From: an uncultured Myxococcales bacterium
GTDB taxonomy: Bacteria > UBA10199 > 2-02-FULL-44-16 > JAAZCA01
Assembly: GCA_964480565.1 (NCBI GenBank)
Contig: CAYZSU010000002.1
Location: forward strand, 3,367 to 67,366
DNA length: 64,000 nucleotides
Direction: 5' to 3'
The position numbers and the translations under genes are program-made. Below, piece after piece: positions 2,228 to 63,177 of this stretch. Position 1 is the stretch's first letter. Each line of letters starts with the position of its first letter. Below the pieces are notes generated by a model. That model was not told where the DNA came from and did not search any database. It was given only the letters and a program-made list of their open reading frames with translations.

Positions 2228-3182
2228 TTTTTTTATCTGATATCAGAGCCTCTGCTGGCGCTAAATCACGATCTCTAAAAAACTTATCATTAACCGATGT
2301 CATGGCATTCACTTCAGCAGCCACATGCCATGCTTGACTTAACTGTCCTGAAACACCCGCACCCAATGACAATAGATGTTGATAATTGATATTTTGAATA
2401 CTTACTTTTTTGCCTGTACGAAAACCCAGATTCACAGCAATACCCAGTTTAGAATGTGGATAGATATCCAGTGCAGCCTTCATACCACCGGTAATACCTG
2501 CATCACCAGTATAGTGAGTATCGCTACCTGTTGGAACAGTAATAAATGGCATTAATGCCACACCAATGGGTGATTTACATGCGCCTAGCAACTTACTCTT
2601 CAACTCAATGCGCAAATCCCCCACATCAATCTGTGTATTAAGCGATGTAGTTGACCTGTCCAAAGGCGATTTAAATGAATTATATAGTACAAATGGCATA
2701 TCAATGCCCAATTGCAACCACGGCATAATGCCCACCGCAGCGGTTAAATCACTGACCAGTAAATGATCGATTACCCCACGGGCACGAAAGTTACTGCTTT
2801 TTACCTGCATGGGTTTAAATGCATAGGAATGATGCATACCCACTAAAAACTGTTTGGCATACAAACTCTCTGATCCGCTAAGCATGGAATATGATGATGG
2901 ACCAATCACAGGTTGATGGAAAATACCATTAAATGTTTGCGAAGCTGCAAATGCATGGCCATGCATTATTGCAAGCATGCCAAAGGTCAAACAAATGAGA
3001 TTGTTGAAAAGCACCCATCTTCGGTGTTTCCCGCTACACCCGTAATCCTTAACAACTCGCATGGTCGCTCGGCCCACGGATTTACGGGCGCCTTGAATCT
3101 GGGCATTTTTGAATAACCCCACAAATTGTCCATTTTTCAATAGTCCCCAAATGAATAGGATTTTTCGATATGAATATGTCAC
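2124..3182 (-). CDS. Beta-barrel-like N-terminal part of the OmpA-family protein. Its signal-peptide region carries an in-frame MITE insertion; the ancestral start is GTG at 3182 with an AAGAGG Shine-Dalgarno sequence. Alternative internal starts at 3062 (ATG inside the MITE) or 2978.
   Basis: Alternating amphipathic beta-strand pattern (KAALDIYPHSKLGIAVNLGFRTG; LSLGAGVSGQLSQAWHVAAEVNAM). Residues 12-61 are a translation of repeat copy A. The reconstructed pre-insertion N-terminus VTYSYRKILFICLTFGMLAIMHGHAFA|AS is a clean signal peptide. Confidence 0.5.
   Translation of the reverse strand: MTYSYRKILFIWGLLKNGQFVGLFKNAQIQGARKSVGRATMRVVKDYGCSGKHRRWVLFNNLICLTFGMLAIMHGHAFAASQTFNGIFHQPVIGPSSYSMLSGSESLYAKQFLVGMHHSYAFKPMQVKSSNFRARGVIDHLLVSDLTAAVGIMPWLQLGIDMPFVLYNSFKSPLDRSTTSLNTQIDVGDLRIELKSKLLGACKSPIGVALMPFITVPTGSDTHYTGDAGITGGMKAALDIYPHSKLGIAVNLGFRTGKKVSIQNINYQHLLSLGAGVSGQLSQAWHVAAEVNAMTSVNDKFFRDRDLAPAEALISDKKIGIIHGGRGRNVFGLWSEGRKSAWKFGIILSIYD
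2999..3147 (+). mobile_element. MITE-like dispersed repeat, copy A (core type 1). Flanked by a direct duplication CAAATGA (2992-2998 and 3148-3154).
   Basis: Shares GATTGTTGAAAAG-CACCCATCTTCGGTGTTTCCCGCTACACCCG...TCTGGGCATTTTTGAA...CAATAGTCCC with copies at 27861, 31693 and 32744. Termini are inverted; flanks are target-site-duplication-like. Confidence 0.8.
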
Positions 3183-9490: not shown

Positions 9491-10819
9491 TTAGTCCGCT
9501 TGTTTGCGTAGAAAAGTTGGAATATCATACTCATCATTTTGATATTCAATTACACCAATATCACGTGCCATCCCTTTCATTTCTTCACGAAATTCATCAT
9601 TATGAATGACTGATGGCTCAACAACTGCTTTTTGTGATGGTGCGCTGCGAGTGGCACCACTCGGATATGAAAATGTTCGTGCAGGTGCATCATCTATAAG
9701 AGGTTTGACTGTTTTTGTCACTGATTCCAAAATATTACTTCCTGATGAGGTTGTTCCTATTTTCGATGACCCTGCGATATTTTTTTGTGCATTAGCTTGA
9801 TTGGCCCGGCCTGCAATACCAATCGATTGTGTGGAATGTACTGGTCGATGCGCACGATTTAATGGCTTATTAAATCCAGTAGCAATCACTGTCACACGCA
9901 TTTCATCTTTCATGGATTCATCAATCACTGCACCAAAAAGTATATTGGCATCTTCATGGGCTTCCTCTTGAATAATCTTGGATGCTTCACTGATTTCAAC
10001 CAATGTCATATCTGAACCACCAGTAATATTGATGAGAATACCAGTCGCTCCTTTAATGGATGTATCCTCCAAAAGTGGACTAGAAATCGCATGTGTCGCA
10101 GCATCAATAGATCGACCCTCACCAACAGCAGAACCGGTACCCATAAGAGCCATACCCATTTCATTCATTACTGTACGTACATCTGCAAAGTCTAAATTGA
10201 TTAAGCCATGAACAATAATTAAATCTGAAATCCCTTTAACCGCTTGATGAAGAACTTGATCCGCCTGTTTAAACGCATCAACGACTGTCATATCAGGCGT
10301 AACAACACTAAGCAGCTTTTCATTTGGAATAGTAATTAATGTATCCACTGCATTTCGAAGTTCTGCCAAACCACGTTCAGCTTGCATATTACGATGACGG
10401 CCTTCGAAGGTAAATGGCTTGGTAACCACACCCACAGTCAATGCACCCATTTCTTTGGCAATTTTAGCAATGACAGGTGCGCCGCCAGTACCTGTACCAC
10501 CGCCCATACCTGCGGTAATAAAGACCATATCAGCGCCTTCCAAATGTTCTGCAATATTACGCTGATCTTCTAATGCCGCATTTTTACCTACATCTGGATT
10601 AGCACCTGCACCCAAACCTTTGGTGAGCTCGCGACCAATTTGAATCTTGGTTCCTGCTAAATTGGCATGAAGCGCCTGCATATCTGTATTTGCTGCGATA
10701 AAATCCACACCATCTAATCCGCATTCAAGCATTGTATTAACCGCATTTCCACCGCCACCGCCAATACCAATCACTTTTATTTTCGCATTCTGTGAATGAC
10801 TTTCTACTAATTCAAACAT
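9491..10819 (-). CDS. ftsZ: Cell division protein FtsZ
   Basis: GGGTGTG tubulin signature, NTDMQAL, and the C-terminal DIPTFLRK peptide. Confidence 0.95.
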
Positions 10820-22669: not shown

Positions 22670-24156
22670 ATATATTTTTCCACAATCTTAACATCATCGA
22701 AATAAATGCGCTCAGTTCCTAAAAGTTGATAATCCTCATGCCCTTTACCTGCAATTAAAAGAACATCATTGCTACGAAGATCTGAAATACTATGTGCAAT
22801 GGCATCTTCACGATCGAGAATAATATCATAGCGAGCCACAGAATTATTTTTATCTTTAAGCGCTTGAATGCCCATGACAATATCATCGATAATAGCACTT
22901 GGATTTTCTGTCCGCGGATTATCATTGGTGATAATAACATGATCTGCCAATGTAACCGCACTTGCACCCATGAGCGGACGCTTTACTTTATCGCGATCCC
23001 CACCACAGCCAAAAACAACAATCAAACGCCCTGAACGACTAGCAGCTATTTTCTGTAAATCAGTCAGCACATTATCCAATGCATCGGATGTATGCGCATA
23101 ATCCACAAAAATAAGTGCATTTTTATTATTTGATATGGATTCGAGTCGACCTGGCGCAGAATAAATAGACGTAAATGCCGCAAGCATATCACTTAATGAC
23201 CAACCAAAACCAAGCCCCACAGAAATTGCAGCCAACACATTACGCACATTAAATTGGCCATATAAGTTCGTATGGCAGATACCGCATTCATCAAATGCAT
23301 GAACCATAAATGACAATCCATTTTCTGTCTCATAGATATCACTGGCATAGCACGCACATTGATTGGATAGTCCATAAGAAATAATACGAGAGGTACACAT
23401 ATCACTTAATTGCCGACCATAGGGATCATCGTAATTAATTACTGCAAACGCATTCTCCTTCTTAGTATTGCTTAAATAATCAGTAAACAACTTGGCTTTA
23501 CTTAAAAAATAATCATCCATGTTTAAATGATAGTCCAGGTGCTCCGGTGTTAAATTTGTAAATACCGCACAGTCAAATTCACAACCCATCACACGATATT
23601 GTTTTAATGAATGCGAACTTACTTCCATGGCACATAAATCTACTTTTTTCTCAGTTAATGTATGCAATACAGACTGCAACTTAATGGATTGCGGTGTTGT
23701 ATGGGATGCAGACTCACTATACCCCTTACATCGATAGGCAATTGTTCCAATAACACCGGGGTTAAAACCGCAGGCATTTGCTAGTTTTTCCAATAAATAG
23801 GTAATGGTTGTTTTTCCATTTGTCCCTGTAATACCTGCTATTTTCATAGCCATTGATGGGCAATCATAATATGCAGCCGCCATCAAACCCATGGTAACAG
23901 CGACATCATCGACACATAACCATGCAATATCATCACGATCAATCGGTATATTACTGATGATACATGCTGCACCTTTGGCTATTGCGTCCTCAATATAATT
24001 ATTTCCATTCAATTGATTACCTGAAATTGCAAAAAAACAATCCCCCGCTTTAACAAGCCGCGAGTCCAAACAAAGTCCGGATATTTCAGTATCCAAGATA
24101 TGTTTAGGACCATTCATACAGTGCAATAACTTAAGTAATTTCACGACAGCCTCCAC
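22666..24156 (-). CDS. murE: UDP-N-acetylmuramoyl-L-alanyl-D-glutamate--2,6-diaminopimelate ligase
   Basis: AGITGTNGKTT P-loop. Mur ligase C-terminal domain. Confidence 0.9.
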   Translation of the reverse strand: MEAVVKLLKLLHCMNGPKHILDTEISGLCLDSRLVKAGDCFFAISGNQLNGNNYIEDAIAKGAACIISNIPIDRDDIAWLCVDDVAVTMGLMAAAYYDCPSMAMKIAGITGTNGKTTITYLLEKLANACGFNPGVIGTIAYRCKGYSESASHTTPQSIKLQSVLHTLTEKKVDLCAMEVSSHSLKQYRVMGCEFDCAVFTNLTPEHLDYHLNMDDYFLSKAKLFTDYLSNTKKENAFAVINYDDPYGRQLSDMCTSRIISYGLSNQCACYASDIYETENGLSFMVHAFDECGICHTNLYGQFNVRNVLAAISVGLGFGWSLSDMLAAFTSIYSAPGRLESISNNKNALIFVDYAHTSDALDNVLTDLQKIAASRSGRLIVVFGCGGDRDKVKRPLMGASAVTLADHVIITNDNPRTENPSAIIDDIVMGIQALKDKNNSVARYDIILDREDAIAHSISDLRSNDVLLIAGKGHEDYQLLGTERIYFDDVKIVEKYI

Positions 24157-26198
24157 TACAATAATGATTTAAACATTACTTTGCATATTCGCCCTGAGGG
24201 TATAATGCTACCTGGCACAGGATCCTGGTGATATGCCAAACCACTGCCTTCAAACTCCCATACAATATCCATATCCGCAGACAATGATAAAATTGACTTC
24301 ATTGTCATTCCCGTTAAATTTGGAATGCGCCACAAGCCATCTTTATCTTTTTTAAAATATTTTTTCTTTACTTGAGCAGCATCTGCAACTTTTAACTGAT
24401 CCGCGTCATTAATCGACCACAGCCCAACCACATCATTCTTTGGTTTTGGCGGTGGCAATTGTCTAATCGCGTCATCAGACATTGCAGTCAATGTTCCAGG
24501 CACTTTCAGATAGTGAAGTGTTGATTCCGTTATTTCTCGAAATACAGGCGCTGCGACTTGCCCCCCATAATAATGACGTCCGCTAGGCTCGTCCAACCCT
24601 ACATATACTGCGATCAATGGATTACTTGCAGGCGCAAACCCCACAAATGACGAGTGATATTTGCCAACCGCATATCCACCCACTTTGTGATCTGCTTTTT
24701 GTGCAGTACCTGTTTTTCCAGCCACATCATATTCCATACTTGCAGCTAAAGTACCTGTTCCACCTGCAGATACAACACCCTCTAATATAGCACGCATTGT
24801 TTTGGATGTATGTCGACTAATCGGATAACTCACAATTGTTGGTGTATTAATTGTTCGCACAGAATCATCGCCCATAACAACTTCCTTAACAAGATACGGT
24901 TTCAGTAATTTTCCTCCATTGGCAATAGCTGAAAAAGCCATCACCATCTGCAGCGGCGTTGCTGCAATACCCTGTCCAAATGCAATTGTCGCATATTGCA
25001 ATACAGACCATTTATTTGGTTTTGATAAAATACCCGATGATTCACCAGGCAAATCAATGCTTGTTTTTGAGCCAAAACCAAATGCTCGAATTGACTCATA
25101 AAGCAAATCCCTGCCCATTTTATTTTCAATTTTATATGTTCCAATATTGCTGGACACTTTAATGATCTCAGATACTCCCAAATCGCCATAGGGATGAGTA
25201 TCTTTAACAATATGATCTGCGATTTGAATCTTGCCATTTTCACAATTAAATTCATCATCCAATGTTATAATGTCCCTATCCAATGCAGATGCAACGACAA
25301 TCACTTTAAATGTTGAGCCAGGCTCATAGGCATTAACAACCGCACGGTTTGTCCAATGCGATAATGGGTACTTAGAGTAATGATTTGGATTAAACATAGG
25401 ATAACTTGCCATAGCAAGAATCTCCCCTGTATTTACATTAACAACAATAGCTGTTCCATCCTTGGCATCAGATGATTCAACAGCTTTAAGCAATTCCCGT
25501 TCCACAATATACTGCAGTGTTTTATCAATTGTTAATACAATATCCGATATATTAATAGATTGTATATCTGTCGGAGATAAGTATAAATACCCTCTTGCAT
25601 CGCGCTTTAAATTGCCATAACTCAACTGCATTGCCAGAACATCATTATAGGATAATTCAATACCACCGAGCGGCTTTGAGTCATAACCCACAGCGCCTAA
25701 TACAGATCCTGCAAGAAGCCCACTGGGATATTGACGTTTACTCTCATCCATCAAATTAATACCAGGAATATTCAATGATTTAATACGCATTGCCAGATCT
25801 TCATCAATCCGACGCTTGACCCATACAAATTTACGCTTACTTGAAAAACGATCCAATAGTGTTCGTCGTTCTACATCCAGTAAATCTGATAATTTTTGTG
25901 CAGCCTCTACGGGTGTTTTTAATTTTGATGGATTGGCGTATACAGACTTAACTTTAATATCAATGGCCAATTCACGCCGTTCTACATCCAAAATACGCCC
26001 GCGCAAACTGCTCGTACGAACAGCTGTTTTATATTGCCGAAGGGCCACTTCATCCAACTGATTGCTATTGGTTAAACGAAAAAATGCCGCACGGCAAAAG
26101 AGCGCTCCCAGGCAAAATGCAATAACACCACCCACCGTAAAAATGCGTCTGGCAGTTTTTACTTCCTCATTATGTTCCTCTAAACGATATCGTGGCAT
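24156..26198 (-). CDS. ftsI: Penicillin-binding protein 3 (FtsI) with C-terminal PASTA domain
   Basis: Transpeptidase STFK, SSN and KTGT motifs. C-terminal ~60 aa (IPNLTGMTMKSILSL...GSIIPSGRICKVMFKS) is PASTA-like. Confidence 0.9.
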   Translation of the reverse strand: MPRYRLEEHNEEVKTARRIFTVGGVIAFCLGALFCRAAFFRLTNSNQLDEVALRQYKTAVRTSSLRGRILDVERRELAIDIKVKSVYANPSKLKTPVEAAQKLSDLLDVERRTLLDRFSSKRKFVWVKRRIDEDLAMRIKSLNIPGINLMDESKRQYPSGLLAGSVLGAVGYDSKPLGGIELSYNDVLAMQLSYGNLKRDARGYLYLSPTDIQSINISDIVLTIDKTLQYIVERELLKAVESSDAKDGTAIVVNVNTGEILAMASYPMFNPNHYSKYPLSHWTNRAVVNAYEPGSTFKVIVVASALDRDIITLDDEFNCENGKIQIADHIVKDTHPYGDLGVSEIIKVSSNIGTYKIENKMGRDLLYESIRAFGFGSKTSIDLPGESSGILSKPNKWSVLQYATIAFGQGIAATPLQMVMAFSAIANGGKLLKPYLVKEVVMGDDSVRTINTPTIVSYPISRHTSKTMRAILEGVVSAGGTGTLAASMEYDVAGKTGTAQKADHKVGGYAVGKYHSSFVGFAPASNPLIAVYVGLDEPSGRHYYGGQVAAPVFREITESTLHYLKVPGTLTAMSDDAIRQLPPPKPKNDVVGLWSINDADQLKVADAAQVKKKYFKKDKDGLWRIPNLTGMTMKSILSLSADMDIVWEFEGSGLAYHQDPVPGSIIPSGRICKVMFKSLL

Positions 26199-26201
26199 TG
26201 A

Positions 26202-26585
26202 TCAGTTTATCTTTCCTTTTTTCTCAACATTTGTTTTGACGTATACAATTTCATCACCCAAAGGCAGACGCATATAATAATGTTTCTTTGCAATTTTCTC
26301 TAATCGCTCTGGTGATTTTAATTCCGCTACTTTCGCCTGTAATTTATTTTTTTGCTCAGATAATTCATGCACTTCTTTTCTAAGCTGACTAACACCATAA
26401 CCCAACTGAATCATCTGAATTCGCATCCAAACAAAGAGCATGGCAATACTCACAGCAACAATAATTAAACTCACTACTTGGCGAATATGTTTGCGACGTT
26501 TAGCCAGATTTTTTTGTGCAACCGGCTGTTTTCGCACAACACTAAATGATGAATACCCAGTACTTGAACGACCAACATCCATCAT
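26202..26585 (-). CDS. ftsL: Cell division protein FtsL
   Basis: Small bitopic protein with a coiled-coil region (QLRKEVHELSEQKNKLQAKVAEL). Position between rsmH and ftsI. Confidence 0.7.
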   Translation of the reverse strand: MMDVGRSSTGYSSFSVVRKQPVAQKNLAKRRKHIRQVVSLIIVAVSIAMLFVWMRIQMIQLGYGVSQLRKEVHELSEQKNKLQAKVAELKSPERLEKIAKKHYYMRLPLGDEIVYVKTNVEKKGKIN

Positions 26586-27469
26586 ACACCCCTTACCAAC
26601 ACTCGCATCTTTGCACTACGCGATCTAGGATTTTGAGCAATCTCATCATCACCTGCACAAATAATTTTTTTATATGCCAAATGATAGTCTTCATCCTTAG
26701 CCAATCGTTTAAATGTATGCTTTACCAGTCGATCTTCCAATGAATGATAGCTAATCATAATCATTTTACCACTCACTGCTAACAACTTTGGAGCTGTATT
26801 TAGAAGTATATTTATCTGCGCTAATTCCTGATTAACTTCAATACGAATAGCCTGGAATGTACGTGTTGCAGGATGAATCCGACCATAGCGCATCTTCGGT
26901 GGATAGCATGCTGCAATAATTTGAGATAATACCAATGTACTATCAATTGGACGCGCCTTACAGATGGCACGTGCAATACGCCTAGCAAATCGGTCCTGCC
27001 CATAGTCTTTAATGATAATAGCCAGCGCATCCTCTTCCATTTCATTAATCACAATACCTGCATGATATGCATCCGATTGATTCATACGCATATCCAGCGG
27101 TGCATCTTTTTGAAAACTAAATCCACGCTTTGCAGTATCCAATTGAAAGCTAGACACACCAAAATCTGCCAATATCCCTACTATATTTAATTGTCTAAGA
27201 TCAGGTAATGATGACACATCTTTCATATCTGCATGAATGGCATTAAATCGATTGCCAAAACATTTAAGACGTTCAGATGCTGCTATAATTGCATCCATAT
27301 CCCTATCAATCCCAACAATATTAATACCTGGCATTGACTCCAGCAATGCATGACTATGCCCGCCACCACCCAATGTCACATCCAATATACTACCCGCCAT
27401 ATTTATGGATGAAAATTCGTCTAGCACTTCCTTGCACAGTACCGGCACATGATAGGATTCGTCGATCAC
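26582..27469 (-). CDS. rsmH: 16S rRNA (cytosine1402-N4)-methyltransferase RsmH/MraW
   Basis: HVPVLCKEVL N-terminus; SAM-binding DVTLGGGGHS. Confidence 0.9.
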   Translation of the reverse strand: MIDESYHVPVLCKEVLDEFSSINMAGSILDVTLGGGGHSHALLESMPGINIVGIDRDMDAIIAASERLKCFGNRFNAIHADMKDVSSLPDLRQLNIVGILADFGVSSFQLDTAKRGFSFQKDAPLDMRMNQSDAYHAGIVINEMEEDALAIIIKDYGQDRFARRIARAICKARPIDSTLVLSQIIAACYPPKMRYGRIHPATRTFQAIRIEVNQELAQINILLNTAPKLLAVSGKMIMISYHSLEDRLVKHTFKRLAKDEDYHLAYKKIICAGDDEIAQNPRSRSAKMRVLVRGV

Positions 27470-27846
27470 TGCATGACCTCTGGCCTATAATCGCCAGCAA
27501 AACTAATCAATGCCTCTTCTACGGATGTATATAAGTTCTCATTCCATCCCATAGCCTGAAAAATATAGCGAATATAATCACTGACTGCGGCCATCTTTAA
27601 ATCACCGCCATCACATTTAAATGCAATAATTTGATCGACTATCTTACGAACTAACTTGTAGTCAAGATGCGTCAGTCCAGAGAAATTAAGCACTACATTA
27701 TTCTGTTCACACTGAGCCAGAGACATAAATACATTTTCCAGCACATGTATATTATGACTCGACAATTCTCCATTTACGCCAACAATAGATACATCATGAC
27801 ATCTGGTAACTTCAAACATATCTCTCTCCCCAAAGATCCCTCGCAA
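27466..27846 (-). CDS. STAS-domain protein (anti-sigma-factor-antagonist-like), inserted between mraZ and rsmH
   Basis: SpoIIAA-like pattern (VSIVGVNGELSSHNIHVLEN...VVLNFSGLTHLDYKLVRKIVDQI). 4-nt overlap with rsmH. Confidence 0.55.
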   Translation of the reverse strand: MRGIFGERDMFEVTRCHDVSIVGVNGELSSHNIHVLENVFMSLAQCEQNNVVLNFSGLTHLDYKLVRKIVDQIIAFKCDGGDLKMAAVSDYIRYIFQAMGWNENLYTSVEEALISFAGDYRPEVMQ

Positions 27847-27860
27847 TTATTTCAATAGTG

Positions 27861-28009
27861 GGGCTGTTGAAAAATGCCCATCTTCGGTGTTTCCCGCTAC
27901 ACCCGCAATCCTCACGTACTCGCATGTACGCTCCGGTTACGGGTTTGCGGAAGCCTAGAATCTGGGCATTTTTGAACAACCCCTAAAATTGCTATTTCTC
28001 AACAGTCCC
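27861..28009 (+). mobile_element. MITE-like dispersed repeat, copy B (core type 1). Perfect 6-bp direct duplication ATAGTG (27855-27860 and 28010-28015).
   Basis: GGGCTGTTGAAAAATGCCCATCTTCGGTGTTTCCCGCTACACCCGCAATCC...TCTGGGCATTTTTGAACAACCCCTAAAATTGCTATTTCTCAACAGTCCC. Termini are mutual reverse complements. Confidence 0.85.
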
Positions 28010-28058
28010 ATAGTGAAAGCGCCTAAAAAACATCCCTTCCTTAGGCCAGTCTGCCCAC

Positions 28059-28499
28059 TTACAATCCCAAATCAGCCAAGCGACTACCTAAATTTTCTAA
28101 TGTACTTTGCGCATCATTAAATACAAGATCCCAACGATCTTTGGCCCAAATCTCAAATCGTTTTGTCATGCCCACAATAATGACATCACGCGACATTCCA
28201 GCATAATCACGCAATGATGCGGGAATGATAATCCGACCCTGCTTATCAATAGGGCATTCCACTGCAGCGGATATAAATACGCGCTGCAATGCTTTAACTT
28301 CTTCCATGAATTGCGGCAATGCGCTGACTTTTCCTTCCAACACCTGCCATTCACTCACTGGATAAGCCCATAAACATTGATCAAAATTGGTAATAATCAC
28401 ACGCTCATCATAATTGGAGCCCAATGTATCGCGAAAACGCGATGGCACTGATAATCGCCCTTTTGCATCAATTTGATGATTATATCGCCCTCGAAACAT
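28059..28499 (-). CDS. mraZ: Transcriptional regulator MraZ
   Basis: Duplicated MraZ/SpoVT-AbrB-like halves (IDAKGRLSVPSRFR; IDKQGRIIIPASLR). Confidence 0.9.
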   Translation of the reverse strand: MFRGRYNHQIDAKGRLSVPSRFRDTLGSNYDERVIITNFDQCLWAYPVSEWQVLEGKVSALPQFMEEVKALQRVFISAAVECPIDKQGRIIIPASLRDYAGMSRDVIIVGMTKRFEIWAKDRWDLVFNDAQSTLENLGSRLADLGL

Positions 28500-28830
28500 G
28501 AATACTCCCTAAGCATGGCCATCCATACCACTTCATACCACCATATGGGATACATACTGATATAACATGGATATCGTCAAGGTCTTTGCAGGCTAATTCA
28601 TTGAAATATCATTACTTTTTTCAAAATGGACTTATTCTTGCGATAAAAAAAGTCGATTAAAAAACAAGACGTTAATACGACGCATAAAAGCATTATATTG
28701 ATAAGCGCCGCAACTGCTTGTTTTTTATACTCTTTTTGAAATGATTATTTTACATGGTGGAACTGTTAAAAAACACCCATTTACTCAATAGAATTGAAGA
28801 TTGTGGTAATTTATACATCAAAGGAAAACC

Positions 28831-29922
28831 TTATGATCGTATCAACTCCTGATAGATTAAATCATGAAGCTGCGGTCGAAATGCACGAATTGCAGTATTG
28901 GTAGAGGTGGGATGAATTCGATTACTGAGTAATATAACATGATACTTATTATCCAAATCAATCCACAGCGAACATCCTGTATACCCCAAATGCCCGATGG
29001 AATTGGCTGAAAAAAATCGACCCGAAGATGAATTCACAGAGGAAGGCCTCATCCAGCCTAGTACATATTGATCATTCTCCGGTTTATTTTCATCCGTATG
29101 CAAAAAATCATAGACTGTTTGTTGGGGCAACCAAGAACAATTTTTATGATAGCTACAGGCCAATGCCGCAGCAAATGCATCCAAATCCAAAGCACATGAA
29201 AACAAACCGGCATGCCCAGCCACTCCACCCAATGCATAGGCATTGGGATCATGCACCTGCGCATGAATGATTCGTTTGCGCCACGGGCAATCCTCTGTAG
29301 GGGCAAATCGACGGTTTTGCGCTAATATATCAGCCTGCTGTTTGGATATTTGCCCAATATTGCGAATGAAAAATGTATGATGCAATCCTAATGGCTGTGC
29401 AATATGATGACTAAAGAGCACATCTAACGGTGCATTCCCCGCTTCTTCTAAAATTCGACCCAATAAAATATACCCAATATCACTATAAATTATTTGATCT
29501 CCTGCCAAAGCAATCGCAGGCTCCTGATAGCAGGCATCCAACACCCATGCACGCCCTTCATCCGTACCCACCAAACTTCGCGGCAATTCTCGATAAAACG
29601 GTTGCCATGCGGCAAGCCCTGATACATGGGATAATAATTGCTGAACAGTCATCTGGCTATGAATTGACAAATCAGCTTTACCCAACCATTGCCCCACTGT
29701 ATCAGACAAACGAAGCAACCCAGAAGAGCATAGTTCCATTGCAACACTCGCAGTACAAACAGCCTTACTCAACGATGCAATATCGAACAATGTCCCATTT
29801 CTGGCATCACCAAAATAAGAATGAAATACAATTTGATCTTCATGCCTAACCAATACTTCAGCTGCAGGAAAGACATTATCCCGAATCGCATGTTCACATA
29901 ATTGTATAATGGCCTGATTCAT
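28831..29922 (-). CDS. Beta-lactamase-family serine hydrolase (class C / PBP4*-like)
   Basis: SxxK active-site motif FDIASLSKAV. Beta-lactamase-family length and composition. Confidence 0.7.
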   Translation of the reverse strand: MNQAIIQLCEHAIRDNVFPAAEVLVRHEDQIVFHSYFGDARNGTLFDIASLSKAVCTASVAMELCSSGLLRLSDTVGQWLGKADLSIHSQMTVQQLLSHVSGLAAWQPFYRELPRSLVGTDEGRAWVLDACYQEPAIALAGDQIIYSDIGYILLGRILEEAGNAPLDVLFSHHIAQPLGLHHTFFIRNIGQISKQQADILAQNRRFAPTEDCPWRKRIIHAQVHDPNAYALGGVAGHAGLFSCALDLDAFAAALACSYHKNCSWLPQQTVYDFLHTDENKPENDQYVLGWMRPSSVNSSSGRFFSANSIGHLGYTGCSLWIDLDNKYHVILLSNRIHPTSTNTAIRAFRPQLHDLIYQELIRS

Positions 29923-30881
29923 ATCGCATCCATAAGATAAAGCGTGCTATCTTGCGCTGTCATTGCAGATAGTGTACATGCTCGGTTTAGTGCAACAGTA
30001 AATGTATTTGCACAATGCCCGAATGGGCAACTCATCACAATTGGACCAGAAAACCCGGACAAACAATCCAGAATCATCTCCTTCATGTCATGGGTATCGT
30101 CCGCTCTATTTTCAAGAGTTCCAAATAAAATTGCTTTAGCGTTTAATAGCTGGCTCGAATTAATTAAATGCATTAGCATACGGTCAAGTGCATAGACATG
30201 CTCATTCACATCTTCAAGCATCACAATTTTTCCAGGTAAATCACTATGATATGCAGTCCCGACACTGGTGCTGAGCATACTAATACAGCCACCTGCTGTA
30301 CGACCCTCACAGTTACCAGATTGAATAATATCTGCCTGTTGCAAGGAAATCGTGTATGATTTTGAGGGTGATAGCAATGCACGTAAAAAAGATCCCTTTG
30401 CATCCATATCTGTACCTTGTGCAAGTTGTGTTAATACAGGACCATAATAAACATGGCATTTAGTGTGTTTGGCAATCATATTAAGCAATGGTGTTAAATC
30501 AGACAATCCAACAATCGTTTTGCTGATATGCGCATATTGCGCCCAATTTATTTGAGTTAATAAACGTTGCACACCATAGCCACCACGCGCAAACAAAATA
30601 ATATCAATGGAATCATCCGTAAGCAGTCGATTGATTTCATTCAAACGACGTTGATCATCACCCGCAAAATAGCGATATTGATCAAATATACTATTATCAT
30701 ATATAACGTCAAAACCATGTGCATGTAATTTTTGAATACCTACTTGAAATAAATCACGAGAAAAATGCCCAGAAAGCGCAGCAATACCCACACGTTTTTT
30801 TTCAGATCTTAATTTATCCCCCAACATGTATTTACTATACCCGCGTCCATCAAAAATCGCTAGTATTATATGACAATACAA
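29919..30881 (-). CDS. ldcA: LD-carboxypeptidase (peptidase S66, muramoyltetrapeptide carboxypeptidase-like). Alternative start ATG at 30827.
   Basis: S66 family blocks (IGIAALSGHF, FARGGYG) and a C-terminal catalytic region. Confidence 0.75.
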   Translation of the reverse strand: MYCHIILAIFDGRGYSKYMLGDKLRSEKKRVGIAALSGHFSRDLFQVGIQKLHAHGFDVIYDNSIFDQYRYFAGDDQRRLNEINRLLTDDSIDIILFARGGYGVQRLLTQINWAQYAHISKTIVGLSDLTPLLNMIAKHTKCHVYYGPVLTQLAQGTDMDAKGSFLRALLSPSKSYTISLQQADIIQSGNCEGRTAGGCISMLSTSVGTAYHSDLPGKIVMLEDVNEHVYALDRMLMHLINSSQLLNAKAILFGTLENRADDTHDMKEMILDCLSGFSGPIVMSCPFGHCANTFTVALNRACTLSAMTAQDSTLYLMDAI

Positions 30882-31155: not shown

Positions 31156-31665
31156 ATGACACGTACTTGGCTTATCGCACTCACAGCACTTATCACAACT
31201 TGCATGGTATCACCTCTTGTATATGCATTAAATGACTGCTACCATTCAGGGGAACAATTACTCATACATGATAATAGTACAGGACATGTTCGTTATGAAC
31301 GTACTGAGACAATTTATCAGCAACCTGATAATTTTTTACTCGCCACAATTGAAGATGAACGTATTATTTTCACACCCATTGTTGAAGTTTTCAAAAATGA
31401 GCTTACCAATCGTTTACTTCGCATTGAATTATCCACTGGCCATAGTTTGATGATCACAGAATCCCATCCAGTATGGGTGAATGACACATTTATCACAGCT
31501 GGCACATTAAGCATCGATGATACATTAACCAGTATTACTGGCGAATCCGTAAGCATCATGGATGTCAAGGTGATGAATTATGATGGATTTGTATATAATT
31601 TTGCTATCAATGGTTCAGGCATACAAATCAGCGATGGCATCCGCCTAGGCGGATCAGACATATAA
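31156..31665 (+). CDS. Small secreted protein consisting essentially of a Hint (Hedgehog/intein / bacterial intein-like) domain
   Basis: Strong AGGAG Shine-Dalgarno sequence. Signal peptide MTRTWLIALTALITTCMVSPLVYA. Hint-like blocks: LTGHSLMITESHPVWV, AGTLSIDDTLTSITGESVSI and the terminal VYNF. Confidence 0.45.
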   Translation: MTRTWLIALTALITTCMVSPLVYALNDCYHSGEQLLIHDNSTGHVRYERTETIYQQPDNFLLATIEDERIIFTPIVEVFKNELTNRLLRIELSTGHSLMITESHPVWVNDTFITAGTLSIDDTLTSITGESVSIMDVKVMNYDGFVYNFAINGSGIQISDGIRLGGSDI

Positions 31666-31692: not shown

Positions 31693-31843
31693 GGGACTGG
31701 TGAAAAATAGCAATTTGTGGGGTTGTTCAAAAATGTCCAGATTCAAGGCCTCCCGCAAACTCGTAACCGGAGCGTACATGCGAGTACGTGAGGATTGCGA
31801 GTGTAGCGGGAAACACAGAAGATGGGCGTTTTTCAACAACCCC
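31693..31843 (-). mobile_element. MITE-like dispersed repeat, copy C (core type 1, inverted orientation). Direct duplication (C)ACTAT at 31687-31692 and 31843/31844-31848.
   Basis: Reverse complement of copy B along its whole length (GGGACTGGTGAAAAATAGCAATTTGTGGGGTTGTTCAAAAATGTCCAGATTC...GAAGATGGGCGTTTTTCAACAACCC). Confidence 0.8.
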
Positions 31844-31910: not shown

Positions 31911-32040
31911 TCCAGATGGCATCCGTCTAATTTGGAATTTTCTGTATGCGCCCTCATTGAAATTTGCTGTTTAGCGAAGTGACAGCGTAATGAGTGTTAA
32001 TGCAATTATTACATTGATCAAGCGCTTATGCATTACAGAA
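31911..32040 (+). repeat. Internal fragment of the long (mosaic) MITE variant; related to the core of the element at 62391-62610
   Basis: Shares ...TGCGCCCTCATTGAAATTTGCTGTTTAGCGAAGTGACAGCGTAATGAGTGTT...GATCAAGCGCTTATGCATTAC with 62450-62555. Confidence 0.6.
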
Positions 32041-32130: not shown

Positions 32131-32217
32131 GGGGAGGTGGCCGAGTGGCTGAAGGCGGCACCCTGCTAAGGTGTTATACGGGAGACCGTATCGAGGGTTC
32201 AAATCCCTCCCTCTCCG
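32131..32217 (+). tRNA. tRNA-Ser (anticodon GCU), long variable arm. CCA not encoded.
   Basis: Folded by hand. Acceptor stem GGGGAGG/CCTCTCC (one G-U pair). D-arm GCCGAGTGGCTGAAGGC. Anticodon loop CTGCTAA. T-arm GAGGGTTCAAATCCCTC. Discriminator G. Confidence 0.9.
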
Positions 32218-32225
32218 CAACAAAA

Positions 32226-32354: not shown

Positions 32355-33565
32355 ATGAATAAAAAGGGACTCCAAAAAATCGGATACGATGAACGAATAG
32401 ACAGTGTAAGCGGTGAATACCTTCAGGACGGGTTTACGATTGCCAGAATAATCGAGGTAAAAATAGCTATACCGTATCAAATGGTCGTCATGAGATGCCG
32501 GCAGAACTCTGCGGTAAATTTCTATTTGATATAGAGAATACAAGCAATTTTCCGACTGTCGGTGACTGGGTAACAATACAGGCCCTTTCTGATAATGCAC
32601 TTGCCCTTATCCACTCTGTCTTGCCGCGCAAGACGCTATTGAAGTGTAAAGAAGCTGGCAGAAAAATAGCATTCCAGCTGATTGCTGCCAATATAGACAT
32701 CGGATTAATCGTACAACCAGCAGATCAGATTAACCTGCTGGATGGGACTGTTGAAAAACGCCCATCTTCGGTGTTGTTCAGCAAATTCAATTCAGTTACA
32801 TACTCGTATGTATGCGCCTTCATTGAATTTGCTGTCCGCCTAGAATCTGGGCATTTTTGAACAGCCCCTAAAATACCTATTTCTCAACAGTCCCTGGATA
32901 GGTATTGCGCGATGCTATAATGAGAGCGATATACAACCTATAGCGGTATTTACGAAAAAAGATCTGATCCCACCTGATGAGATCTCATCCATACAAAATG
33001 ACCTTGCCATGTTACACATGCAATATGTGTTTATCAGCAATGCCGTCAAAGGTGGAGAAACGGATCTATCCAAAAATCTCGTTTCAGGTAAAACATATTG
33101 TTTACTTGGCAAATCCGGAGTCGGCAAGACATCCCTTCTCAATCGATTGCTTCATAGTGATGAGTTCAAAGTAAATAATGTTCGAAAAAAAGATGGAAAA
33201 GGAAAGCATACCACTACAAAACGACAGCTGGTGTGTCTTGATTCCGGCAGCATCTTCATTGATACACCAGGCATGCGAGAACTTGGAAATTTTAAAATAA
33301 ACAAAGGCATCGATGAAACGTTTGAAGAGTTCTCTTTGCTAGCATTATCCTGTCGCTTCAAAAATTGTACCCATAACCACGAAGAGGGATGCGCAGTTCT
33401 TGACGCTATCTCACGGGGAAAATCGAACAAACTAGATATGATAATTTTTTAAAGCTCAAACGAGAGGCAGAATTCTATGACATGTCATATCATGAAAAGC
33501 GCCATAAGGATAAATCCTTTGGAAAAATGATAAAACAGTACAAAAAATTTAAAAATCAGCAATAG
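32355..33565 (+). pseudogene. rsgA: rsgA (ribosome small-subunit-dependent GTPase A) pseudogene, split by MITE copy D and at least three frameshifts
   Basis: RsgA blocks recovered in three different frames: OB domain (...CGKFLFDI...PTVGDWV), IAANIDIGLIV / LDRY / IAVFTKKDL, G domain (GKSGVGKTSLLN, GKGKHTTT, DTPG), zinc finger (CRFKNCTHNHEEGCAV) and tail RYDNFLKLKRE. Confidence 0.75.
32744..32893 (+). mobile_element. MITE-like dispersed repeat, copy D (core type 2), inserted inside rsgA. Direct duplication (C)TGGAT at 32738-32743 and 32894-32899.
   Basis: GGGACTGTTGAAAAACGCCCATCTTCGGTGTTGTTCAG...TCTGGGCATTTTTGAACAGCCCCTAAAATACCTATTTCTCAACAGTCC. Same termini as copies A-C but a different core. 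Confidence 0.8.
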
Positions 33566-34786: not shown

Positions 34787-35476
34787 TTAATCTTTTTTCA
34801 TAATGAATAAATAATTAAATCCGCGCAAATAAAAATTGCCCTTCACCGCCTCATCCAAAAAATTCTTTCGTTTGAGTTTTTTATTATGGCGCACCACAGA
34901 AACAATATCGAGTGCCCGGAAGTATTTTTGTAATATTCCAAACAACTCAAAACCAATAGGTACAAACCCTTTTTTATTTTGATAGGTGTCGGACACATAC
35001 AATGCCATACAGCGCTTAGGCCGCATGATACGGTGAATTTCAGCAATCACCCGATGCATGGATTTAAAATAGTCCACCTCAAATGCAGATAGTTTACCAA
35101 TACATCGCTTATCATCGGAATAATCAATATGCGTGGAATATGGCGGATCGATAAATACAAAATCCGCTTTTTCATCCTCTAAAGGTAGCTTTCTTGCATC
35201 GGATCGAAAAATATCCTTTCGCGTGGGATTTAAGTCATAGCCCAATGCGCGCCGATTTAAGTCCCTAGCCACATCCAATGTCGTCCCGCTGCCACACATG
35301 GGATCCACGATTAAATCTTTTTTTCTTGTATAACGATTTAACAAGTTCCAAATAATATAGGATGGTGTTGCTCCTTCATAGTCTTTACTACCCTGTATTT
35401 CCCCACCATAATGTTGAGAAGGATAATCCCACAAAGTGGTACCATGCATGGGCACATTGTTTCTAGTATTATTCAT
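34787..35476 (-). CDS. Small SAM-dependent nucleic-acid methyltransferase (N6-adenine / N2-guanine amino-methyltransferase family; UPF0020-like)
   Basis: Motif I LIVDPMCGSGTTLDVA and motif IV FVFIDPPYS. No adjacent restriction endonuclease. Confidence 0.55.
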   Translation of the reverse strand: MNNTRNNVPMHGTTLWDYPSQHYGGEIQGSKDYEGATPSYIIWNLLNRYTRKKDLIVDPMCGSGTTLDVARDLNRRALGYDLNPTRKDIFRSDARKLPLEDEKADFVFIDPPYSTHIDYSDDKRCIGKLSAFEVDYFKSMHRVIAEIHRIMRPKRCMALYVSDTYQNKKGFVPIGFELFGILQKYFRALDIVSVVRHNKKLKRKNFLDEAVKGNFYLRGFNYLFIMKKD

Positions 35477-54702: not shown

Positions 54703-54726
54703 CAAAATGCCCATCTTCGGTGTTTC
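54703..54726 (+). repeat. Solo fragment of the MITE left terminus
   Basis: CAAAATGCCCATCTTCGGTGTTTC matches the left end of copies A and B. Confidence 0.5.
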
Positions 54727-62312: not shown

Positions 62313-62390
62313 AGATCCTCCTTCCGGGTCTTAAAAATAAGCTCTGGGCCAATCCCAGAACTAAGGAGACTGATAAGTCTTTAATTTAAT

Positions 62391-62610
62391 GGGTTTTTTT
62401 AAAAACGCCCATCATCAGTGTTATTCAGTAAATTCAATTCAGTAGCATATTCTTATGGTTGCGCTCTCATTGAATTTTCTGTTTAGCGATGTGACAACCT
62501 GAGTGTTTGCATTCGCAAATAGCCAAGCTGATCAAGCGCTTATGCATTACTGACAGTGAAAATATAATAGTCGCTGTCTGCTTAAAACCTGGATATTTTT
62601 GAACAGTTCC
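62391..62610 (+). mobile_element. Long mosaic MITE variant (copy F). It has the type-2 left end plus a ~75-bp extra core module, and a truncated/divergent right end that abuts the pth stop codon.
   Basis: GGGTTTTTTTAAAAACGCCCATCATCAGTGTTATTCAG... matches copy D. The middle matches 31911-32040. The end is ...GGATATTTTTGAACAG. Confidence 0.65.
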
Positions 62611-63177
62611 TCAATTTGTATGAAATCGTTGTTGAACATCTGCAAGTGTCATATCGCTTACCAAACATTTAATTGCGCGACTTGCAGTATTAATCAACTC
62701 TTTCAATTGTATATCATCATTACTATCAAAGGCTTGCAATACATAATCCGCGGGATTCATATAATTTGGTGGTCTGCCAATGCCAAACCGAATGCGGTAT
62801 ATGTCCTTACTGCTAAGCATTTGATAAATTGACCGAATGCCATTGTGACCACCATGACCACGATTCGTATCAATTTTTATTTTTCCAAATGAAATATCTA
62901 GATCATCATGAATCACAATAATATCATGGCACTCTATTTTATAATACCCTGCAATACTAGCAACCGCTTCACCAGATAAATTCATAAATGTTTCTGGCTT
63001 AATCAATATGGCAGGCCGATTTTCAATTAGCCCTTTACCGATAAGTGACTTAAATTGCTTATTGCATACATCGATATTCCACTGACCTGCCAAGTAATCG
63101 ATTACATGAAAGCCAATATTATGGCGATGTCTAGAATATCGTCTACCCGGATTACCTAGTCCAACAATTAACTTCAT
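62611..63177 (-). CDS. pth: Peptidyl-tRNA hydrolase
   Basis: MKLIVGLGNPG...HNIGF... catalytic His/Asp blocks. Confidence 0.9.
   Translation of the reverse strand: MKLIVGLGNPGRRYSRHRHNIGFHVIDYLAGQWNIDVCNKQFKSLIGKGLIENRPAILIKPETFMNLSGEAVASIAGYYKIECHDIIVIHDDLDISFGKIKIDTNRGHGGHNGIRSIYQMLSSKDIYRIRFGIGRPPNYMNPADYVLQAFDSNDDIQLKELINTASRAIKCLVSDMTLADVQQRFHTN

Follow-up and report, generated by a model that had tools for sequence, protein, structure and literature searches.

Gene order at the head of the cluster

The window analysed here is a 64,000-nt (64-kb) stretch of DNA from an uncultured Myxococcales bacterium (assembly GCA_964480565.1, contig CAYZSU010000002.1, positions 3,367 to 67,366), and all coordinates are given relative to it. 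Its cluster of genes for division and the cell wall (dcw) lies on the minus strand and opens with mraZ, a 239-nt spacer that carries a miniature inverted-repeat transposable element (MITE), a gene for a small STAS-domain protein, rsmH, ftsL and ftsI, in this order. Downstream of ftsI follow mur genes (murC among them), ddl, ftsQ, ftsA and ftsZ (9491-10819), all on one strand. This layout, with mraZ and rsmH at the 5' end and ftsL, ftsI, mur genes and ftsQAZ after them, is that of a dcw cluster; mraZ is, however, not directly followed by rsmH, because the STAS gene lies between them both here and in every relative examined. The genes and signals at the head of the cluster are as follows.

28059..28499, minus strand: mraZ (146 aa; Pfam MraZ, 1.9e-33; NCBIfam TIGR00242, 137.7 bits against a cutoff of 98.35; 69-80% identity to relatives)
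27820..28058, minus strand: mraZ-STAS spacer (239 nt; about 84 nt if the MITE and one copy of its target-site duplication are removed)
27824..27831, minus strand: Shine-Dalgarno-like sequence GGGGAGAG, preceding the STAS ATG at 27819
27466..27819, minus strand: STAS gene (117 aa; Pfam STAS; motif H51-L-D53-Y54 at the site of the D-S58 phosphorylation site of SpoIIAA)
26582..27469, minus strand: rsmH (295 aa; Pfam Methyltransf_5, 2.6e-92; NCBIfam TIGR00006, RsmH equivalog, 298 bits; GTG start)
26202..26585, minus strand: ftsL-like gene (DivIC/FtsL), overlapping rsmH by 4 nt
24156..26198, minus strand: ftsI (PBP3-type transpeptidase)

An earlier, sequence-only reading of this DNA had placed a STAS gene between mraZ and rsmH, which is borne out by the Pfam and NCBIfam assignments together with the coordinates. 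The same applies to the 4-nt overlap that it had described between the STAS stop codon (TGA, 27466-27468) and the rsmH start codon (GTG, 27467-27469), and because of this overlap STAS is probably translationally coupled to RsmH. The length of 126 aa given there for the STAS protein has to be revised to 117 aa. All STAS homologues have this length and start with MFEV, and GGGGAGAG is located upstream of the ATG at 27819, so that this codon was taken as the start rather than the TTG at 27846, which would make the protein 9 codons too long. With this start, the spacer comprises 239 nt instead of 212.

Conservation of the STAS gene and its position

A search with the single sequence retrieved 30 STAS homologues (54-68% identity), and a family-profile search yielded 137 clusters at 90% identity. 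The profile search of representative proteins covered 1.84 billion proteins and returned 576 matches at E <= 1e-3, of which 29 fell below 1e-10; the close STAS family appeared there as one 50%-identity cluster, behind which distant relatives formed a short tail. Distant members were found by searching again with an alignment of the distant relatives and looking up the respective contigs. In every relative with readable context, the STAS gene was situated between mraZ and rsmH (about 20 distinct loci, ranging from 70% down to about 24% identity). The complete order mraZ-STAS-rsmH-ftsL-ftsI was present in loci L004-L007, in 11 of 11 GTDB species representatives (L008-L018) and in L019 and L020. 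The more distant members, all found between mraZ and rsmH, are listed below with their identity to the STAS protein of the window.

P0124, locus L021: 41% identity, between mraZ and rsmH
P0293, locus L022: about 28% identity, between mraZ and rsmH
P0301, locus L023: about 28-29% identity, between mraZ and rsmH
P0305, locus L024: about 24% identity, between mraZ and rsmH
P0309, locus L025: about 24% identity, between mraZ and rsmH

L025 belongs to a metagenome-assembled genome (MAG) that carries the label candidate division FCPU426, which NCBI ranks as a phylum. In L024 and L025, MraZ is 34-36% and FtsI 33-35% identical to the proteins of the window, which reflects a deep divergence. Two proteins served as controls: a Ser-bearing STAS protein (P0323, motif F-M-D-S-S-G) is encoded in a spoIIAA-spoIIAB-sigF operon, and a weak match (P0321) lies outside any dcw cluster. 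Since both behaved as expected, the linkage to the dcw cluster belongs to a specific STAS subfamily and is no product of the search method. The carriers are labelled in NCBI as Deltaproteobacteria, Myxococcales, Pseudomonadota, candidate division FCPU426 or as MAGs named simply 'bacterium', and all of those seen are uncultured. In a broad range of uncultured bacteria, spanning more than one phylum-rank lineage, the mraZ-rsmH module thus has STAS as a fixed third gene.

The sequence-only reading had regarded the cluster as atypical. The separation of mraZ and rsmH is indeed real, but it is not a local oddity, being fixed in the loci of about 20 relatives; in the synteny comparison, there was clearly neither a lack of conservation in relatives nor a canonical junction elsewhere, the two outcomes that had been named as speaking against the arrangement.

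Across the close loci, identity to the window proteins amounted to 50-70% for STAS, 41-48% for RsmH and 46-58% for FtsI, so that at the same loci STAS is more conserved than RsmH and about as conserved as FtsI. The pairwise ratio of nonsynonymous to synonymous substitutions (dN/dS) of STAS was 0.03-0.12 in pairs without saturated dS, and the STAS-rsmH junction was identical in three independent assemblies (ENA, JGI and Logan) of the same contig. Judged by these comparisons, the STAS open reading frame (ORF) is a genuine gene under strong purifying selection. The last residue of the protein (27469-27471) is Gln in 30 of 30 close homologues, and many distant dcw-linked members end in W-Q, W-H or H. 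This C-terminal residue may be functional, because its conservation exceeds what the overlap with the rsmH start codon demands.

Fold and conserved motif of the STAS protein

The protein matched the Pfam STAS profile (PF01740) over positions 3-106 of 106 (E = 6.8e-11; 42.3 bits, cutoff 22.6). Structure prediction by AlphaFold2 with the family alignment gave a predicted local distance difference test score (pLDDT) of 81.8 and a predicted template modelling score (pTM) of 0.75, with the elements in the order E-E-H-E-H-E-H-H. In Foldseek comparisons, the model resembled TM1442 (1vc1), SpoIIAA (1th8/1til), RsbV (6m36) and RsbS with TM-scores of 0.75-0.8 and a probability of 1.00. Structural modelling, proposed as a check in the sequence-only reading, therefore returned a confident SpoIIAA/RsbV-like fold.

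The most conserved residues are G17-E-L-S20..N23, H51-L-D-Y54, M76-A-A-A79 and Y82, which, in the predicted secondary structure, map to the beta2-alpha1, beta3-alpha2 and beta4-alpha3 segments. These three loops make up the partner-binding face of the STAS fold, and their conservation suggests that the dcw STAS family retains such a face. Within the second segment, H51, D53 and Y54 are invariant among 30 sequences of the close family, and in the profile alignment to SpoIIAA, Tyr54 coincides with the phospho-acceptor Ser58. At this site, all dcw-linked members have H-x-[D/H/N]-[Y/F/L/V], with F, L or V in the distant ones and never Ser or Thr. The motif and the dcw context together define a recognisable STAS subfamily. 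The database names of its members are limited to 'STAS domain-containing protein', 'anti-anti-sigma factor' (JGI) and 'hypothetical'.

Promoter and operon control

Upstream of mraZ, the following conserved elements were found.

28575..28580, minus strand: -35 box TTGACG of the mra promoter, kept in all 14 relatives aligned
28552..28557, minus strand: putative -10 hexamer GTATGT, 17 nt after the -35 box, proposed from its conservation (TTATCT, TTAAGT or CTATTT in relatives)
28526..28541, minus strand: two MraZ-box-like direct repeats, GTGGTA-TGAA-GTGGTA, with a 10-nt period, 32-42 nt before the mraZ ATG

A T-A-x-x-x-T hexamer follows TTGACG at a distance of 17 nt in all 14 relatives aligned, and GTGG[G/T]A repeats spaced 10 nt apart are located at about -44/-34 (+/- 2) in 14 of the 14. 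In B. subtilis, MraZ binds to GTGG[A/T]G repeats separated by 4-nt spacers and represses the mraZ-mraW-ftsL-pbpB operon to which its gene belongs (bioRxiv 10.1101/2022.02.09.479790). The repeats of the window are thus predicted MraZ-binding direct repeats with a motif as in B. subtilis, and STAS would be the second gene of a MraZ-autoregulated operon. Two further stretches are conserved in this region: CCCAT, between the -10 hexamer and the GTGG[G/T]A boxes, is kept across the clade (28526-28580, minus strand; L004-L020), and the motif TTTTCAAG-N-AATTAGAA is found about 40 nt upstream of the mra -35 box.

The MITE and the mraZ-STAS junction

The spacer between mraZ and STAS contains one of four full copies (150-151 bp) of a MITE in the window, which also has a degenerate copy and a fragment of it, as determined by blastn. 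The copies and associated features are listed below.

27860..28009, plus strand: MITE copy B (150 bp; terminal inverted repeats GGGGCTGTTG and CAACAGTCCC and a nested inner repeat on the right)
27855..27859: left copy of the target-site duplication ATAGT
28010..28014: right copy of the target-site duplication ATAGT
31693-31843, orientation opposite to B: MITE copy A (flanks ATAGT; 91.5% identity to B)
32744-32894, same orientation as B: MITE copy C (flanks TGGAT; 77% identity to B)
2997-3147, same orientation as B: MITE copy D (flanks CAAAT; 81% identity to B)
62389-62618: enlarged, degenerate MITE copy
54704-54726: MITE fragment (23 nt)
27846..27873, minus strand: promoter-like site across the MITE end, facing STAS (TTTTCA, 16 nt, AATAAT, upstream TG; weak, 9/12 consensus match in a scan)

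The element is short and non-coding, with terminal inverted repeats, target-site duplications and copies in different contexts, and a 30-mer from its end had 3 matches in the window as compared to 0 expected. The sequence-only reading was right about a MITE flanked by a direct repeat but had assigned it to a spacer of 212 bp, with the duplication read as ATAGTG. The duplication is the 5-bp ATAGT, because copies C and D are flanked by 5 bp (TGGAT and CAAAT, respectively), and the sixth base, G, already opens the left inverted repeat. Insertion of the 150-bp element into a spacer of formerly about 84 nt, with formation of the 5-bp duplication, would account for the present arrangement. Copies A and B are both flanked by ATAGT, which suggests a target preference or a coincidence. 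The core of copy C differs from that of A, B and D, and a piece of it recurs at 31943-31970 beside copy A. An exact 24-mer of the reconstructed empty site, representing the pre-insertion allele, had no match in metagenome_contigs. A degenerate 26-mer designed to detect further copies was also unmatched there. Negatives from this collection are weak, because it covers not all JGI records and evidently lacks the JGI contig L002 (3300009008), which contains the 26-mer. No blastn match was obtained among plasmids, and no parent transposase was found.

The predicted folding energy of the spacer on the operon strand is -96 kcal/mol (z = -5.8), in agreement with the strong hairpin described in the sequence-only reading. 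No intrinsic terminator with a U-tract was predicted on this strand of the spacer. Rfam at gathering thresholds returned nothing in the spacer and only a tRNA-Ser in the window. Promoter-like sites in the MITE region numbered 11 as compared to 5.3 +/- 2.4 expected; the site facing STAS is a possible promoter. Since the essential genes downstream have to be transcribed and a terminator is missing from the predictions, transcription most likely continues through the hairpin or is supplemented by a weak promoter at the junction; the MITE would at most shift the ratio of mraZ to downstream message.

The spacer is only 0-17 nt long in six close lineages and reaches up to about 33 nt in the distant ones, which indicates that a hairpin at the junction is not required. 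Others have long, hairpin-bearing spacers (84-167 nt; z = -3.3 to -8) that are unrelated both to each other and to the MITE, with stems of at least 20 bp.

L008, 5879-6000: hairpin-bearing mraZ-STAS spacer
L010, 5881-6000: hairpin-bearing mraZ-STAS spacer
L011, 5834-6000: hairpin-bearing mraZ-STAS spacer
L014, 5843-6000: hairpin-bearing mraZ-STAS spacer
L015, 5883-6000: hairpin-bearing mraZ-STAS spacer
L016, 5917-6000: hairpin-bearing mraZ-STAS spacer

The spacer of L014 additionally contains a GTGACTC tandem repeat. Given the two patterns, short spacers on the one hand and unrelated hairpins on the other, the junction is a recurrent landing site for palindromic DNA. The hairpin could instead have been selected, as an attenuator, an mRNA-stability element or a processing site that uncouples the dosage of MraZ from that of the downstream genes. 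The stability of the predicted fold and the at least five independent acquisitions of unrelated long hairpins at the same junction, in L008/L010, L011, L014, L015 and L016, are in line with this idea. Nevertheless, it is doubtful, since at least six close lineages and all distant ones manage with only 0-33 nt, since a U-tract terminator is missing from the predictions, and since the MITE also occurs in ordinary intergenic DNA and in a decayed rsgA gene, as a selfish element would; moreover, a long essential operon offers few permissive landing sites, its intergenic gaps being among them. As judged from the spacers compared, the MITE is a secondary, lineage-specific and ordinary insertion beside the conserved STAS gene. 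Ordinary as it is, it marks a junction at which hairpin-forming insertions have been accepted time and again.

Proposed role of the STAS protein

Our preferred interpretation, to which we assign a probability of roughly 0.45, is that STAS is a co-transcribed, MraZ-repressed protein that acts by phosphorylation-independent protein binding, with the MITE being secondary. STAS would be transcribed together with mraZ, rsmH, ftsL and ftsI from a MraZ-repressed promoter. It would not be a phosphorylation-controlled anti-anti-sigma factor but would bind a protein partner directly through the canonical STAS interaction face. The likeliest targets are its operon partners, with STAS acting as an antagonist or co-factor of either the MraZ repressor or the RsmH methyltransferase, and the binding would tune the expression of the division genes. 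Binding to MraZ or RsmH appears most plausible because STAS has stayed between them, probably coupled to rsmH, while all else diverged.

The main competing explanation for the protein itself is that it represents a classical antagonist of the SpoIIAA/RsbV type, served by an unlinked kinase/anti-sigma factor and phosphatase, which ties a stress or developmental sigma factor to the division operon. It shares its fold with SpoIIAA, RsbV and TM1442, its best sequence matches in the PDB are to SpoIIAA (E about 1e-6), and JGI annotates relatives as 'anti-anti-sigma factor'. We nonetheless consider this explanation unlikely. In antagonists of this kind, helix 2 has a phosphorylatable Ser or Thr at its start (S58 in the D-S-S-G motif of SpoIIAA), whereas here the acceptor position is taken by an invariant Tyr in the close family and, in the distant members linked to dcw, by Phe, Leu or Val. 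The protein also scored below the cutoff of the NCBIfam anti-sigma-antagonist superfamily (TIGR00377; 31.5 vs 53.45 bits) and far below that of spore_II_AA (26.6 vs 114.75 bits). The designation 'SpoIIAA-like' in the sequence-only reading was thus too strong, and the search for an RsbW/SpoIIAB partner kinase that it had recommended is probably a wrong lead, given the replacement of Ser by Tyr and the low family score. A domain scan of the 52 window ORFs of at least 90 aa detected neither a kinase of the HATPase_c (HATPase_c_2) type nor a PP2C/SpoIIE phosphatase, and no sigma factor was found in the 64 kb, consistent with the earlier remark that no STAS partner is encoded nearby. Kinase, phosphatase and sigma genes were likewise absent from 4-6 kb of flanking sequence in about 20 relatives. 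By contrast, the SpoIIAA-type positive control P0323 is directly adjoined by kinase/anti-sigma and sigma genes.

A spurious STAS ORF, or a junction created by misassembly or chimera formation at a repeat, has a probability close to zero: two contigs of the same organism (L002 and L003) do end inside the MITE, so that the repeat disturbs assembly, but this explanation was excluded by an ENA contig covering mraZ, the MITE, STAS and rsmH at 100% identity, by about 20 other lineages without the MITE in which both gene and position are conserved and by a dN/dS well below 1, in addition to the confident STAS fold.

Several points weigh against the preferred interpretation or limit it. Among 10 multi-domain matches, none was a fusion of STAS with MraZ or RsmH (only tandem STAS or HATPase_c_2-STAS architectures were present), so that there is no Rosetta-stone support for a partner, whose identity we purely infer. 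An unlinked RsbW-like partner may be encoded elsewhere in the genome, and the Tyr could itself be a site of modification. In addition, the six relatives with unrelated strong hairpins at the junction suggest that a structured element after mraZ may sometimes be selected, which would run counter to reading the MITE as a neutral insertion. Finally, a redox switch based on a C37-C69 disulfide, as in RsfA, was considered and given up as the leading hypothesis: C69 is invariant, but C37 is replaced by R, H or S in divergent members, a loss that weakens this alternative without identifying a mechanism.

According to work on E. coli cited in bioRxiv 10.1101/2022.02.09.479790, overproduction of MraZ is toxic and co-expression of RsmH relieves this effect. 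A third protein in the MraZ-RsmH circuit would be a reasonable, though unproven, reading. A more far-reaching variant, which we regard as speculative and would not expect to hold, is that, in several candidate phyla, STAS belongs to the core of the mra operon without having been recognised as such and physically links MraZ and RsmH. It could then serve as an anti-repressor that titrates MraZ, much as AbbA acts on the related AbrB fold, or it could be a regulatory RsmH subunit. If true, a physical link of this kind would open a direct molecular approach to the genetic antagonism between MraZ and RsmH, which has long lacked an explanation, and to the place of this pair at the head of the division cluster.

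Neighbouring genes and a degraded region

Just upstream of mraZ (28831-30881, minus strand), an AmpC-like serine hydrolase (Beta-lactamase family) and an LD-carboxypeptidase (Peptidase_S66) are encoded by genes that overlap by 4 nt. Synteny of these two genes with the dcw cluster extends to many relatives, where they lie on the opposite strand and are often accompanied by a gene for an Rce1-like (CPBP) protease.

The gene for the ribosome-assembly GTPase RsgA (rsgA, 32356-33452, plus strand) has the appearance of a decayed pseudogene. MITE copy C, with its TGGAT duplication, is inserted in the conserved L-D-R-Y segment and brings an in-frame stop codon; two more frameshifts are located near 32470 and 32920, and a match to RsgA_GTPase is left only in the C-terminal ORF (33009-33452). 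A short ORF with a weak pretoxin-HINT match (31156-31665, plus strand) and a 229-aa fragment matching an N6/N4 DNA methylase (34787-35476, minus strand) are found near tRNA-Ser(GCT) (32131-32218) and MITE copies A and C, and they may be remnants of a mobile or degraded region.

Comparison with known systems

A 5-bp duplication together with GGGG termini is a signature of the Tn3 family. The MITE resembles Tn3-derived miniature elements (TIMEs) and the repetitive extragenic palindromic (REP) and MITE sequences found in operons in its size of 150-151 bp, its lack of coding capacity, its GGGG/GGGA repeat ends, the 5-bp duplication, its multiple copies and its long hairpin. It differs from TIMEs in that no 38-bp Tn3-type repeat ending in TAAG was found for it and no cognate transposon was matched.

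With the SpoIIAA/RsbV antagonists, the STAS protein shares a length of about 117 aa, the beta-alpha STAS fold and detectable sequence similarity (E about 1e-6). It differs from them by having H-L-D-Y in place of D-S-S-G, with no Ser or Thr at the N-terminus of helix 2, and by being fixed inside the mra operon without an adjacent kinase/anti-sigma, phosphatase or sigma gene. MlaB and the redox-controlled RsfA are examples of STAS domains that bind a partner without Ser phosphorylation. The similarity to these proteins is one of resemblance only, as the STAS gene of the window has no linked MlaF-type ATPase or anti-sigma factor, and the second cysteine required for a disulfide as in RsfA is not conserved in the divergent dcw STAS members.

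The cluster corresponds to the canonical mra operon of E. coli and B. subtilis in the set and order of genes from mraZ to ftsZ, in the GTGG repeats with their 10-nt period and in its tight gene overlaps; it differs in the extra conserved gene that parts mraZ from rsmH in the window and in its relatives. The canonical dcw cluster has been described as comprising 15-17 genes and opening with mraZ and mraW, with no STAS member (PMC8871954). Literature searches for a STAS protein or anti-sigma antagonist in connection with mraZ, mraW or dcw returned nothing relevant, and searches on dcw synteny yielded general papers on the cluster in which no STAS component was mentioned. The arrangement, in which a known fold meets a known cluster, thus appears to be undescribed; it is deeply conserved, and its motif is distinctive and non-phosphorylatable. 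The mraZ-rsmH pair is among the most conserved gene pairs in bacteria and raises the question why a DNA-binding repressor and a 16S rRNA methyltransferase should be tied to the division genes. A third protein kept at their junction, across lineages whose MraZ proteins are only about 35% identical, represents a natural experiment that points to an additional layer of regulation.

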